Position numbers and translations under genes: made by a program
Origin: Escherichia coli
GTDB lineage: Bacteria > Pseudomonadota > Gammaproteobacteria > Enterobacterales > Enterobacteriaceae
Assembly (NCBI RefSeq): GCF_003790525.1
Contig: NZ_CP033635.1
Length of the DNA: 64,000 nucleotides
Strand: one strand, 5' to 3'
Shown: positions 14,605 to 43,763 of the stretch, piece by piece
Numbering within the stretch: position 1 is the first letter of the stretch
Layout: each line of letters starts with the position of its first letter
The notes under the pieces: model-generated
The model's database searches: none
Told to the model about the DNA's origin: nothing
The model's input: the letters and a program-made list of their open reading frames with translations, nothing else

Positions 14605-16218
14605 ATGAAGCACTCTGTTTCAGTCACGTGTTGTGTGCTGTTGGTCAGCAGCATTTCTCTTTCGTATGCTGCTGAAGTTCCGAGCGGCACAGTACTGGCA
14701 GAGAAGCAGGAGCTGGTGCGCCACATTAAAGATGAGCCAGCGTCGCTGGATCCCGCTAAAGCCGTGGGCCTGCCGGAGATTCAGGTCATTCGCGATCTGT
14801 TTGAAGGACTGGTGAATCAGAACGAGAAAGGGGAGATTGTCCCCGGCGTTGCGACTCAGTGGAAAAGTAATGACAGCCGTATCTGGACTTTTACCCTGCG
14901 CGATAACGCAAAATGGGCGGATGGCACACCGGTAACGGCGCAAGATTTTGTCTACAGCTGGCAACGTCTGGTGGACCCGAAAACGCTATCGCCATTTGCA
15001 TGGTTTGCCGCGCTGGCGGGAATCAACAACGCACAGGCGATTATTGATGGTAAAGCCACGCCTGACCAGCTTGGCGTCACCGCAGTTGATGCCCATACTT
15101 TGAAAATCCAGCTTGATAAACCATTGCCGTGGTTTGTGAATTTAACCGCTAACTTTGCCTTCTTCCCGGTGCAAAAAGCCAACGTAGAAAGCAGTAAAGA
15201 GTGGACGAAACCCGGAAATCTGATCGGCAATGGCGCTTATGTTCTTAAAGAGCGCGTAGTCAATGAAAAACTGGTCGTAGTGCCGAATACCCATTATTGG
15301 GATAACGCCAAAACGGTACTGCAAAAAGTGACCTTCCTGCCAATTAATCAGGAATCCGCAGCCACTAAGCGTTATCTCGCGGGGGATATTGATATCACCG
15401 AATCCTTCCCGAAAAATATGTATCAGAAGTTGTTGAAGGATATTCCGGGGCAGGTTTATACGCCGCCGCAGCTCGGGACCTATTATTATGCGTTTAACAC
15501 GCAAAAAGGGCCGACGGCAGATCAGCGCGTTCGCCTGGCATTAAGTATGACGATAGATCGCCGCCTGATGACCGAAAAAGTGTTGGGGACGGGCGAAAAG
15601 CCAGCGTGGCATTTTACACCAGATGTTACCGCGGGATTTACGCCGGAACCTTCGCCGTTTGAACAAATGAGTCAGGAAGAACTGAATGCGCAGGCAAAAA
15701 CTTTGTTGAGCGCAGCTGGTTATGGTCCGCAAAAACCGCTGAAGTTGACGCTTTTGTATAACACTTCAGAAAACCATCAAAAAATTGCGATTGCTGTAGC
15801 ATCGATGTGGAAAAAGAACCTGGGCGTAGATGTTAAATTGCAAAACCAGGAATGGAAAACCTATATCGATAGCCGTAATACCGGCAATTTTGATGTTATC
15901 CGCGCCTCGTGGGTAGGGGATTATAATGACCCCTCCACTTTCCTGACATTATTAACGTCAACGCATTCCGGGAATATTTCACGCTTTAACAATCCGGCAT
16001 ATGACAAAGTTCTGGCCCAGGCATCGACGGAAAATACCGTTAAAGCGCGTAATGCCGATTACAACGCGGCAGAAAAAATCCTCATGGAGCAAGCACCGAT
16101 TGCACCAATTTATCAATATACCAATGGACGATTAATCAAGCCGTGGCTGAAAGGTTATCCCATTAATAACCCTGAAGATGTGGCGTACAGTCGGACTATG
16201 TATATTGTGAAGCATTGA
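14605..16218 (+). CDS. mppA: Periplasmic murein tripeptide-binding protein (OppA paralogue, SBP family 5)
   Basis: 537 aa from MKHSVSVTCCVLLVSSISLSYA signal peptide. Confidence 0.9.
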   Translation: MKHSVSVTCCVLLVSSISLSYAAEVPSGTVLAEKQELVRHIKDEPASLDPAKAVGLPEIQVIRDLFEGLVNQNEKGEIVPGVATQWKSNDSRIWTFTLRDNAKWADGTPVTAQDFVYSWQRLVDPKTLSPFAWFAALAGINNAQAIIDGKATPDQLGVTAVDAHTLKIQLDKPLPWFVNLTANFAFFPVQKANVESSKEWTKPGNLIGNGAYVLKERVVNEKLVVVPNTHYWDNAKTVLQKVTFLPINQESAATKRYLAGDIDITESFPKNMYQKLLKDIPGQVYTPPQLGTYYYAFNTQKGPTADQRVRLALSMTIDRRLMTEKVLGTGEKPAWHFTPDVTAGFTPEPSPFEQMSQEELNAQAKTLLSAAGYGPQKPLKLTLLYNTSENHQKIAIAVASMWKKNLGVDVKLQNQEWKTYIDSRNTGNFDVIRASWVGDYNDPSTFLTLLTSTHSGNISRFNNPAYDKVLAQASTENTVKARNADYNAAEKILMEQAPIAPIYQYTNGRLIKPWLKGYPINNPEDVAYSRTMYIVKH

Positions 16219-40153: not shown

Positions 40154-42793
40154 ATGCTGGGTAAATATAAAGCCGTTCTCGCGCTGTTATTACTGATTAT
40201 TCTTGTGCCGTTGACGCTGCTGATGACGCTCGGGCTGTGGGTTCCTACGCTGGCGGGCATCTGGCTACCGCTCGGGACACGTATTGCATTAGATGAAAGC
40301 CCACGCATTACGCGTAAAGGTTTAATCATTCCCGATCTCCGTTATCTGGTGGGAGATTGTCAGCTTGCGCATATCACCAACGCCAGCCTTTCACATCCCA
40401 GCCGCTGGTTATTGAACGTCGGCACGGTAGAACTTGATTCTGCTTGTCTGGCGAAATTGCCGCAGACGGAGCAATCGCCAGCCGCTCCAAAAACCCTCGC
40501 GCAGTGGCAGGCCATGTTGCCTAACACCTGGATCAATATCGATAAACTGATTTTTTCTCCCTGGCAGGAATGGCAGGGAAAACTCTCTCTCGCATTAACC
40601 TCCGATATCCAGCAACTGCGTTATCAGGGCGAAAAAGTTAAATTTCAAGGCCAGCTGAAAGGGCAACAACTTACAGTCAGCGAACTGGATGTCGTCGCGT
40701 TTGAAAATCAGCCGCCGGTTAAACTGGTGGGGGAATTTACTATGCCGCTCGTGCCGGATGGACTTCCGGTAAGTGGGCATGCTACTGCGACGTTAAACTT
40801 GCCGCAGGAACCGTCACTGGTGGATGCAGAGCTGGACTGGCAGGAAAATAGCGGGCAATTGATCGTGCTGGCACGGGATAACGGCGATCCGTTGCTCGAT
40901 TTGCCGTGGCAAATTACTCGTCAACAATTGACCGTAAGCGATGGTCGCTGGAGCTGGCCGTATGCAGGTTTTCCTTTGAGTGGCCGACTGGGTGTCAAAG
41001 TCGACAACTGGCAGGCAGGGCTCGAGAACGCTCTGGTCAGCGGACGACTGAGTGTGCTGACCCAGGGGCAAGCGGGTAAGGGCAACGCGGTGCTTAATTT
41101 TGGCCCAGGAAAATTAAGCATGGATAACAGCCAGCTGCCTATGCAACTGACCGGTGAAGCGAAACAGGCGGACCTCATTTTATATGCCCGTTTACCTGCG
41201 CAGCTAAGTGGAAGTCTGTCTGACCCAACGTTGACCTTTGAGCCAGGCGCGTTACTTCGTTCAAAGGGAAGAGTCATTGATTCGCTGGACATCGATGAAA
41301 TCCGCTGGCCTTTAGCGGGTGTAAAAGTCACCCAACGTGGTATTGACGGACGTTTGCAGGCCATTTTGCAGGCGCATGAAAATGAACTGGGCGATTTCGT
41401 GCTGCATATGGATGGACTGGCGAATGATTTTCTCCCTGACGCTGGCCGCTGGCAGTGGCGCTACTGGGGAAAAGGCAGTTTTACACCGATGAATGCCACC
41501 TGGGATGTCGCAGGAAAGGGTGAGTGGCATGACAGCACGATTACGCTGACCGATCTCTCCACCGGTTTCGACCAGTTACAATACGGTACGATGACGGTAG
41601 AAAAGCCGCGACTAATTCTCGACAAGCCCGTCGTCTGGGTACGTGACGCACAGCATCCCTCCTTTAGCGGCGCGCTGTCACTGGACGCCGGGCAAACGCT
41701 GTTCACTGGCGGCAGTGTGTTACCGCCATCGACCTTAAAATTTAGCGTCGATGGACGCGATCCGACGTATTTCCTCTTTAAAGGCGATTTACATGCTGGT
41801 GAGATTGGCCCGGTTCGGGTAAATGGTCGCTGGGACGGTATTCGTCTGCGCGGTAACGCCTGGTGGCCTAAACAATCACTGACCGTATTCCAGCCGCTGG
41901 TGCCACCCGACTGGAAGATGAACTTACGCGATGGCGAACTATATGCCCAGGTCGCATTTTCTGCTGCGCCTGAACAAGGATTCCGCGCGGGAGGGCACGG
42001 CGTGTTGAAAGGCGGTAGTGCCTGGATGCCAGATAATCAGGTTAACGGTGTCGATTTTGTCCTGCCTTTCCGTTTTGCCGATGGAGCCTGGCATCTGGGG
42101 ACTCGCGGCCCCGTTACGTTGCGAATTGCCGAAGTGATTAATCTGGTGACAGCGAAAAATATTACGGCTGATTTGCAAGGGCGTTATCCGTGGAGTGAAG
42201 ACGAACCATTGTTGTTGACCGATGTTAGCGTCGATGTGTTAGGCGGTAACGTGCTGATGAAACAATTACGTATGCCGCAACATGACCCGGCGCTGTTGCG
42301 GCTGAATAATCTTTCCTCCAGCGAACTGGTTAGCGCCGTCAATCCGAAACAATTCGCCATGTCCGGGGCATTTAGTGGTGCATTGCCGTTATGGCTAAAC
42401 AACGAAAAATGGATAGTGAAAGATGGTTGGCTGGCAAATAGCGGGCCAATGACCTTGCGGCTGGATAAAGACACCGCAGATGCGGTGGTGAAAGACAATA
42501 TGACTGCGGGTTCAGCAATTAACTGGTTGCGCTATATGGAAATTAGCCGTTCATCGACAAAAATTAATTTAGATAATCTCGGTTTATTAACCATGCAGGC
42601 CAACATTACAGGTACCAGTCGCGTTGATGGTAAAAGCGGTACGGTAAATCTTAATTACCATCATGAAGAGAATATTTTTACGCTGTGGCGCAGTTTACGC
42701 TTTGGCGATAATCTCCAGGCATGGTTGGAGCAGAACGCACGTCTGCCGGGAAATGACTGTCCGCAAGGAAAAGAGTGTGAGGAAAAACAATGA
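40154..42793 (+). CDS. ydbH: AsmA-like large membrane-anchored periplasmic protein
   Basis: 879 aa; N-terminal TM anchor; stop overlaps ynbE start (ATGA). Confidence 0.9.
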   Translation: MLGKYKAVLALLLLIILVPLTLLMTLGLWVPTLAGIWLPLGTRIALDESPRITRKGLIIPDLRYLVGDCQLAHITNASLSHPSRWLLNVGTVELDSACLAKLPQTEQSPAAPKTLAQWQAMLPNTWINIDKLIFSPWQEWQGKLSLALTSDIQQLRYQGEKVKFQGQLKGQQLTVSELDVVAFENQPPVKLVGEFTMPLVPDGLPVSGHATATLNLPQEPSLVDAELDWQENSGQLIVLARDNGDPLLDLPWQITRQQLTVSDGRWSWPYAGFPLSGRLGVKVDNWQAGLENALVSGRLSVLTQGQAGKGNAVLNFGPGKLSMDNSQLPMQLTGEAKQADLILYARLPAQLSGSLSDPTLTFEPGALLRSKGRVIDSLDIDEIRWPLAGVKVTQRGIDGRLQAILQAHENELGDFVLHMDGLANDFLPDAGRWQWRYWGKGSFTPMNATWDVAGKGEWHDSTITLTDLSTGFDQLQYGTMTVEKPRLILDKPVVWVRDAQHPSFSGALSLDAGQTLFTGGSVLPPSTLKFSVDGRDPTYFLFKGDLHAGEIGPVRVNGRWDGIRLRGNAWWPKQSLTVFQPLVPPDWKMNLRDGELYAQVAFSAAPEQGFRAGGHGVLKGGSAWMPDNQVNGVDFVLPFRFADGAWHLGTRGPVTLRIAEVINLVTAKNITADLQGRYPWSEDEPLLLTDVSVDVLGGNVLMKQLRMPQHDPALLRLNNLSSSELVSAVNPKQFAMSGAFSGALPLWLNNEKWIVKDGWLANSGPMTLRLDKDTADAVVKDNMTAGSAINWLRYMEISRSSTKINLDNLGLLTMQANITGTSRVDGKSGTVNLNYHHEENIFTLWRSLRFGDNLQAWLEQNARLPGNDCPQGKECEEKQ

Positions 42794-42975
42794 AAATTTT
42801 ACTGGCTGCGTTGACGTCATCTTTTATGCTGGTTGGCTGTACGCCTCGCATTGAAGTCGCTGCCCCTAAGGAACCGATCACTATCAATATGAACGTTAAA
42901 ATTGAGCATGAGATCATCATCAAGGCAGACAAAGATGTCGAAGAGCTGCTTGAGACCCGTAGCGATCTTTTTTGA
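42790..42975 (+). CDS. ynbE: Small lipoprotein
   Basis: 61 aa; lipobox LVGC. Confidence 0.85.
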   Translation: MKILLAALTSSFMLVGCTPRIEVAAPKEPITINMNVKIEHEIIIKADKDVEELLETRSDLF

Positions 42976-42979
42976 GGTG

Positions 42980-43306
42980 ATGATGAAAAGAACATTACTT
43001 CTTTGTGCATTTCTTGTTGGCTTGGTAAGCAGCAATGTAATGGCATTGACTCTGGATGAAGCCAGAACTCAGGGGCGGGTAGGTGAAACATTTTATGGTT
43101 ATCTGGTTGCGCTGAAAACGGATGCTGAAACAGAGAAATTAGTAACCGACATTAATGCCGAACGTAAAGCGAGTTACCAACAACTGGCAAAGCAAAATAA
43201 TGTGTCGGTAGATGATATCGCGAGACTGGCGGGGCAAAAGCTCGTATCTCGCGCTAAATCAGGAGAATATGTGCAGGGCATTAACGGAAAATGGTTACAG
43301 AAATAA
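42980..43306 (+). CDS. ydbL: Periplasmic protein (DUF1318)
   Basis: 108 aa from MKRTLLLCAFLVGLVSSNVMA; SD GAGGTG. Confidence 0.85.
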   Translation: MMKRTLLLCAFLVGLVSSNVMALTLDEARTQGRVGETFYGYLVALKTDAETEKLVTDINAERKASYQQLAKQNNVSVDDIARLAGQKLVSRAKSGEYVQGINGKWLQK

Positions 43307-43402
43307 GAACGTCTGCCCCGCTTGTTGCGGGTATAGTTCTCTACTACACGACTTCTTTCATCGCAGCCTGGTAGATTCGAACAATTCACACAGGAGGCAA
43401 CA

Positions 43403-43453
43403 ATGAGCTACAAAATAGAATTTCTGCGTTTATTATCGGTTCAAGTAAAATAA
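43403..43453 (+). CDS. Candidate 16-codon small ORF (MSYKIEFLRLLSVQVK) with strong SD
   Basis: AGGAGG 7 nt upstream of ATG, in AT-rich ydbL-ydbA spacer; no other support. Confidence 0.25.
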   Translation: MSYKIEFLRLLSVQVK

Positions 43454-43763
43454 TAAGAATTGATATTTCGAATATGTGTGAATTTACGGAATTGGGTGGT
43501 GAAAGCAACCTGCCATCCATTTTACTGTTCGTGTAAAATTTGTTAGAAGAAATAATTTAATGTAATGTAACGAGCGACCTGATTAATAAAATAAAACATT
43601 CATCTGGGTTATATATTAAAGTTATTTGATGATGAATTGAATTGTCATGAATTGCTAAATAAAGCTTCTTAAATAATATATAATCATGACCACTCTTCGT
43701 TTATGACGTTTCTGTTACACCCATTTTACTGTTTAAACTGTCTCTGATTGAGAGGGATTTCTC

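Follow-up and report, generated by a model that had tools for sequence, protein, structure and literature searches.

The island-free ydbL-bigA spacer of phylogroup F Escherichia coli lies in a mosaic tract shared with Escherichia albertii

In E. coli K-12, a block of genes for phenylethylamine and phenylacetate catabolism lies between ydbL and ydbA; in the DNA studied here, a 64,000-nucleotide stretch of an E. coli genome that we refer to as the window, the same two genes are separated by 457 bp. How did an island-free junction come to occupy this position? An earlier note on this DNA placed the fea/paa block between the two genes in K-12 and offered two origins for the short spacer, an ancestral empty site or a deletion scar. 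The first statement is borne out by the K-12 MG1655 gene order, which runs ydbL, feaR, feaB, tynA, paaZ, paaA-K, paaX, paaY, ynbG, ydbA, the last being a pseudogene broken by IS2 and IS30. The two proposed origins fare less well, as we show below.

In the window, ydbH (40154-42793), ynbE (42790-42975), and ydbL (42983-43306) are followed by a gap and then by a 5955-nt ORF (43764-49718) corresponding to bigA, also known as ydbA. The adjacency that the earlier note had described is therefore real: the last base of the ydbL stop codon is 43306, and the ATG of bigA/ydbA starts at 43764. Strains XDL and SMS-3-5, among several complete E. coli genomes, are 100% identical to the window here, and the RefSeq annotation of XDL has the same ydbL and bigA boundaries with zero features in the gap. 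The main features of the locus are as follows.

42983-43306, + strand: ydbL (107 aa), chimeric, with ~225 nt of E. coli type at the 5' end and ~85-100 nt of E. albertii type at the 3' end
43307-43763, + strand: ydbL-bigA spacer, 457 bp, single-copy, 33.9% G+C, without annotated feature
43764-49718, + strand: bigA/ydbA, encoding an intact 1984-aa autotransporter; passenger region to ~48602
44098-44444, + strand: 21-nt tandem array, 16.5 copies, encoding (GGNTPDD)n near the BigA N-terminus

The spacer had been described as very AT-rich, and its composition fully agrees: it contains 33.9% G+C compared to 49.5% for the window as a whole, and the stretch from 43420 to 43763 only 29.7%. Indeed, this is the most AT-rich 457-bp stretch in the 64 kb, within the lowest 0.25% of all 457-bp windows, and the comparable ones all overlap the spacer. 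The poorest 200 bp within it have 25.5% G+C, in the lowest 0.013% of the window. The spacer has 9.0 TpA steps per 100 nt, compared to 4.8 in the window.

The window aligns with K-12 as far as 43294, leaving 12 nt to the ydbL stop codon, and from there no homology is seen until 48603, where bigA encodes the C-terminal barrel. The same gap is found against an ST131 (B2) strain and an O157-type strain, where homology stops at 43294-43306 and restarts at 48603. Comparison with E. albertii revealed that much of this interval has a close relative in another species; the coordinates below come from site-by-site comparison, sliding-window identity, and a three-way alignment with IAI39 and E. albertii, respectively.

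43208-43223, no strand: left crossover interval of the E. albertii-like tract
43224-48560, no strand: E. albertii-like tract of high identity; right edge diffuse
43567-43571, no strand: 5-bp insertion, an AATGT tandem duplication, in the window sub-allele only

In the sliding comparison, the window has 95-99% identity to K-12 and 77-87% identity to E. albertii from ydbH through ynbE and into the 5' part of ydbL; at the end of ydbL, the identity to E. albertii jumps to 98-100%. The last 96 nt of the gene are 100% identical to E. albertii and 81% identical to K-12. Looking at the individual sites that separate K-12 from E. albertii, we found that nearly all agree with K-12 up to 43207, while 21 of 21 between 43224 and the stop codon agree with E. 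albertii. The nearest relative thus switches abruptly within conserved coding sequence; this switch shows that ydbL is chimeric, with a crossover within 43208-43223. Fixed segments give the same result: the window is only 83.5% identical to E. albertii from the 3' end of ydbH through the 5' part of ydbL, but 97.5% identical across the 3' end of ydbL, the spacer, and the 5' part of bigA.

The high identity continues downstream. The spacer is 91-99% identical to E. albertii in 150-nt windows, and bigA is 93-99% identical to ~48.5 kb. On the right side, the identity falls to 94-96% at 48.6-48.9 kb and ~90% at 49.0-49.7 kb, and the window is K-12-like again (97-98%) from ~49.8 kb. When we attempted to locate the right-hand junction site by site, the signal was patchy and gave no clean breakpoint.

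All six E. albertii loci in our sample, which we reached via their BigA proteins, consist of ydbL (107 aa), a 457-bp spacer, and bigA, without fea/paa genes. (A genome contig search with YdbL returned neither an E. fergusonii nor an E. albertii representative.) The intergenic region of one of these, CP117600.1 (locus L064, 9544-10000), has the same flanking genes and length as the window spacer and ~97% identity to it, with ~10 substitutions and different 5-bp indels. The common length of 457 bp is coincidental, since the 5-bp insertions differ: the E. albertii insertion follows 43638, the window insertion is the AATGT duplication listed above, and the spacer of IAI39, a second phylogroup F sub-allele, is 452 bp.

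IAI39 also differs from the window in the position of its switch, which lies at 43232-43246. The window, IAI39, and E. albertii are roughly equidistant from one another at 2.5-3.2%, and neither F sub-allele falls within the diversity of the six E. albertii alleles, which are 99.5-100% identical to each other in the tract and 99.2-100% in the flank. The two F sub-alleles differ by 3.2% in the tract compared to 1.1% in the flank. In two patches of bigA (46164-46963 and 47364-47763), the window matches E. albertii at 97-99% identity but IAI39 at only 84-87%, pointing to further mosaicism within the passenger domain.

At the DNA level, the passenger region of bigA shows no homology with the alleles of K-12, B2, or O157. 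In a protein search with the BigA passenger (1613 aa), E. albertii proteins appear alongside E. coli alleles with 92-96% amino acid identity and are the closest ones outside E. coli; K-12 and B2-type BigA are only ~45% identical. The number of copies in the tandem array near the N-terminus appears to vary between strains, and BigA proteins of close alleles range from 1886 to 1994 aa.

To place the spacer within the species, we counted junction types in 5426 complete E. coli genomes, with the following results.

paaF-paaG present: 3154/5426
B2 scar (feaR'-'paaY): 817/5426
O157/phylogroup E type (ydbL-407 bp-bigA): 375/5426
L074 type: 142/5426
L075 type: 115/5426
window's spacer: 46/5426 (41 intact)
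2013C-4282 type: 18/5426

A blastn search set for distant matches, run with the spacer against all complete E. coli genomes, found it in no genome outside these 46 and no repeats of it elsewhere. Its carriers include SMS-3-5, IAI39, and CE10, of which we take the latter two to belong to phylogroup F. SMS-3-5 is a phylogroup F strain of ST354 (PMC11537424). Some carriers have been further modified: an IS3-family element interrupts the spacer in CE10 (at ~43506-43512), in N32, and in an IAI39-type genome (IS positions in the relatives L004, L003, and L073), and in three genomes the spacer breaks off at 43446. We examined one of these three, SCU-172, in which an IS1 follows 43446 and bigA-pdxI-ydbD is deleted. 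In phylogroup A, the paa-ydbA region between ydbL and ynbC has already been described as heterogeneous (PMC4951805), and O157:H7 and CFT073 are likewise known to lack tynA (PMC4640556).

Two of the other island-free types deserve description. In ST131 (B2), the junction is a true scar: a K-12-type ydbL is followed by 423 bp from the feaR side, with a 3' remnant of feaR that an 18.09-kb deletion with 4-bp microhomology has joined to the 3' end of paaY (14682-15260 in the ST131 locus L005; 5630 and 23722 in the K-12 locus L002). The 8.6-kb bigA downstream of this scar is mislabeled 'EntS/YbdA MFS transporter' in RefSeq. In the O157-type haplotype (14179-14909 in L006, strain TR01; 10001-10730 in L010, Escherichia sp. 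E1V33), the switch lies upstream of ydbL, near 42300-42600 in ydbH, and TR01 is otherwise E. coli-like in its flank. The O157/O55 (phylogroup E) haplotype appears to be a second replacement of interspecies type at this locus, independent of the first.

Across the Enterobacterales (loci L007-L063), the DNA 3' of ydbL is highly variable. The gene is followed by azoR in Pantoea, Mixta, Photorhabdus, and Kosakonia; by ynbA..azoR in most Citrobacter and Salmonella; and, within ~7 bp, by feaR-feaB-tynA(-paaZ..) in Leclercia, Silvania, and some Citrobacter. In E. whittamii, ydbL is followed by pdxI, without bigA.

Taking these observations together, we think it likely that, in an island-free haplotype common to phylogroup F and E. 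albertii, this spacer is the native sequence between ydbL and bigA, and that it was imported by homologous recombination. An E. albertii-type allele would have been placed into the ancestor of phylogroup F, with ydbL as the recombination arm at the left and the conserved bigA barrel or pdxI as the arm at the right. The mosaic tract, ~5.3-6.5 kb long, comprises the 3' end of ydbL, the spacer, and the passenger-coding region of bigA, and the same single event would have removed the intervening DNA, most probably the fea-paa block together with the E. coli-type bigA passenger.

Several observations lead us to infer that the transfer was into phylogroup F. In the 3' end of ydbL, K-12 and E. albertii are ~19% apart, the usual interspecies level (82-87% identity), so that the K-12-type end has the appearance of the E. 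coli orthologue and the F-type end that of an import. Import is also favored because a single crossover explains both the K-12/F and the albertii/F breakpoints, and because the allele is rare in E. coli but present in 6/6 of the E. albertii sampled.

Transfer in the reverse direction, or from a third party, would have an old F-lineage or unsampled Escherichia allele exported to E. albertii and swept through that species, which would make the F spacer an island-free allele of long standing in E. coli. This is unlikely, in our view, although it accommodates several of the findings: the diversity of the E. albertii tract is very low relative to the distance between the F sub-alleles, the F alleles fall outside the diversity of the six E. 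albertii genomes, and E. coli holds several other deep ydbL-bigA haplotypes. However, the E. albertii flanks are as uniform as the tract, so the low diversity of the tract is no evidence of a sweep. Export would further require a separate K-12/B2-type allele of the ydbL 3' end whose breakpoint coincides in the same 16-40-nt interval, when the distance of 19% between K-12 and E. albertii in this segment is that of ordinary orthologues of the two species. It must also contend with an allele found in 0.8% of E. coli genomes and in every E. albertii locus.

Import into phylogroup F has a complication of its own. Given that the two F sub-alleles are 3.2% apart in the tract and have shifted crossovers, either two imports or later patchy recombination is needed. 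Any one of three histories, namely two imports, local recombination at a later time, or a donor outside our sample, could account for the near-identity of the E. albertii alleles and the position of the F sub-alleles outside them, the equidistance of the three alleles, the shifted switch in IAI39, and the patchiness of bigA.

Did the ancestor of phylogroup F have an island to lose? The island or its remnants are found in most E. coli and in a cryptic Escherichia lineage, and the island follows ydbL in Leclercia, Silvania, and some Citrobacter, so it probably predates phylogroup F. Likewise, with paaFG in 3154 genomes, remnants in 817, and the F-type spacer in 46, the island state is that of the majority and is probably the older one in E. 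coli. We hold with only moderate confidence the stronger claim that phylogroup F lost the 18-kb phenylethylamine/phenylacetate block in one step, through an imported, island-free, adhesin-variant E. albertii allele, and that such replacement has been repeated at the locus, for example in the O157 lineage with a cryptic-clade allele.

The first of the two origins put forward in the earlier note, an ancestral empty site, would mean that phylogroup F inherited an island-free junction vertically and that fea/paa was inserted later in other lineages. The spacer does lack island remnants, and E. albertii, Escherichia sp. E1V33, and E. whittamii have no island at this site; even so, we consider this origin very improbable. 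Vertical descent predicts ~15% divergence from E. albertii, as in the flanks, but we see 2.5%; with the spacer ~97.5% and the core ~83.5% identical to E. albertii, and with a clean crossover in a chimeric ydbL, the junction does not look like an empty site handed down within E. coli. In addition, the spacer matches neither side of the island in island-positive strains, and island remnants are present in B2. In a cryptic Escherichia lineage and several other genera, feaR lies directly 3' of ydbL, which indicates that the adjacency of the island to ydbL is old.

The second, a deletion scar in which the island was excised or deleted in situ and the spacer is what remains of its ends, is scarcely credible: the position is exactly that of the K-12 island, and in-situ deletions such as the 18.09-kb one in B2 are known at the locus, but no part of the spacer resembles the K-12 ydbL-feaR and paaY-ydbA intergenic regions except ~13 nt at the bigA ribosome-binding site, a tblastn search of 43291-43780 with K-12 island proteins (FeaR, FeaB, TynA, Paa, and others) yields nothing below E = 0.7, the adjoining 4.8 kb of bigA has been replaced too, and the arrangement is identical in E. 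albertii. A spacer without similarity to the island flanks and without gene remnants is therefore not a scar, and it is not the left flank of the K-12 island joined to the right flank, as would be expected of an empty site. The choice between these two origins is thus unsupported; what we find in their place is an albertii-type tract with its crossover in ydbL.

We also looked at the ends of the island in K-12. Neither an integrase gene nor a tRNA gene is present at the K-12 island. An 11-bp direct repeat, TAACTAATTGG, occurs in both island-junction intergenic regions of K-12, with an inverted copy in the ydbL-feaR gap (L002 5341-5351, 5371-5381, and 24334-24344). The match is slightly longer than expected by chance, 3% of shuffles having one as well, and it is absent from the window. 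A repeat search in 43200-43900 of the window returned short pairs only, at the level expected by chance.

What does the spacer contain? By position, it lies 3' of the last gene of ydbH-ynbE-ydbL and 5' of bigA on the same strand, confirming that it is upstream of ydbA/bigA as the earlier note had it. The ydbH-ynbE-ydbL transcription unit presumably ends within it, and it would supply bigA with a promoter, 5' UTR, and ribosome-binding site. As a sequence feature, it would be an ordinary AT-rich promoter/intergenic region, the promoter role being assigned from its position. Three elements can be described within it.

43317-43331, + strand: G+C-rich hairpin CCCGC-TTGTT-GCGGG, 11 nt past the ydbL stop codon (fold of 43295-43400, z = -1.9)
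43392-43453, + strand: consensus Shine-Dalgarno AGGAGG (43392-43397), 5 nt, and a 16-codon ORF, MSYKIEFLRLLSVQVK (43403-43453), read from the sequence
43637-43763, + strand: promoter-proximal block with TATAAT (43679-43684) and the bigA Shine-Dalgarno GAGAGGGA (43750-43757), both read from the sequence

The hairpin lacks a T-run and so is a weak terminator at best, and a terminator scan of the spacer region found none. Some read-through from ydbL into bigA is conceivable, this hairpin being the sole terminator-like element. The 16-codon ORF is intact in IAI39 and, with its Shine-Dalgarno, in E. albertii, with little divergence (residue 2 is Asn instead of Ser in E. albertii); this candidate ORF could encode a leader peptide or a small protein, or could be present by chance. 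An Rfam scan of 43100-43950 (E up to 10) returned no family, only chance snoRNA-like matches far below threshold.

The end of the spacer is more conserved. Compared to five other ydbL-bigA spacers from E. coli and other Escherichia, the window spacer is unrelated save for its last ~130 bp, which align (~70%) with one other E. coli haplotype (2013C-4282 type), and the ribosome-binding site, which is shared by all. These ~130 bp, with TATAAT at 43679-43684, are a candidate bigA promoter region. A promoter scan found two sigma-70-like sites in the spacer compared to 2.3 expected in dinucleotide shuffles, no excess. The Shine-Dalgarno/start region, GAGAGGGATTTCTCATGCAAAAGAAAAC, is the only block conserved across all nine bigA haplotypes that we aligned, and this conservation fixes the bigA start codon.

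The earlier note had suggested that the region is bound by H-NS. The high-affinity H-NS motif TCGATAAATT has no match in the spacer with one mismatch or fewer; at two mismatches there are three matches, reflecting AT-richness only. The extreme AT-richness makes the spacer a likely target, and silencing by H-NS/StpA is plausible given this composition, the roughly doubled TpA frequency, and the analogy with the non-homologous, H-NS-bound paaY/ydbA region of K-12 described below. The spacers upstream of bigA that we examined are all AT-rich, with 25-34% G+C, though their sequences are unrelated.

These results correct the natural reading of an island-free junction. The absence of fea-paa from E. 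coli strains has multiple mechanistic origins, either in-situ deletion (B2) or a foreign island-free allele (F, E, and further haplotypes); we count at least three mechanistically different ones. Presence/absence matrices for paa and tynA, as used in pan-genome and phenotype studies, merge these distinct origins into a single state. If the stronger claim above holds, the ydbL-bigA junction would be a recurrent point of interspecies exchange, where selection on an adhesin drags a metabolic island in or out, and the loss of a metabolic trait would be a by-product of swapping alleles of a surface adhesin. The interspecies crossover, mapped to 16 nt, should be of use for studies of gene flow between E. 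coli and E. albertii.

How does this junction compare with those already known? The positional counterpart in K-12 is the paaY/ydbA intergenic region, a 'promoter island' reported as H-NS-bound in K-12 ChIP data (PMC3661553, Panyukov and Ozoline 2013). Like the window spacer, it lies immediately upstream of ydbA/bigA, and its G+C content is lower still (25% compared to 34%). However, homology between the two is limited to ~13-25 nt around the ribosome-binding site and start codon, the K-12 region encodes ynbG, which is absent from the window, and the window spacer has no more promoter-like sites than its shuffles.

Among island-free junctions, the B2 scar of ST131/CFT073-like strains lies at the same chromosomal position as that of the window, but it keeps the K-12-type end of ydbL, remnants of feaR and paaY, and a bigA of the K-12 family, all of which the window lacks. 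The O157:H7/phylogroup E junction is also island-free and is near-identical to that of the non-E. coli strain Escherichia sp. E1V33; in contrast to the window, it has an unrelated 407-bp spacer, and its whole ydbL is foreign-type (~77-79% identical to that of other E. coli).

The pneumococcal literature offers the concept that accessory DNA is lost when an 'empty' allele replaces an occupied one by homologous recombination. There, as proposed here, the arms lie in flanking conserved genes and a single event converts an island-bearing locus to an island-free one. In contrast to that concept, the donor here appears to be another species, and the passenger domain of a surface adhesin was swapped as well. 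The ydbL-bigA junction of phylogroup F adds a new, well-delimited case to a known process, in which homologous replacement between species at a surface-antigen locus costs the recipient an accessory block as a by-product.
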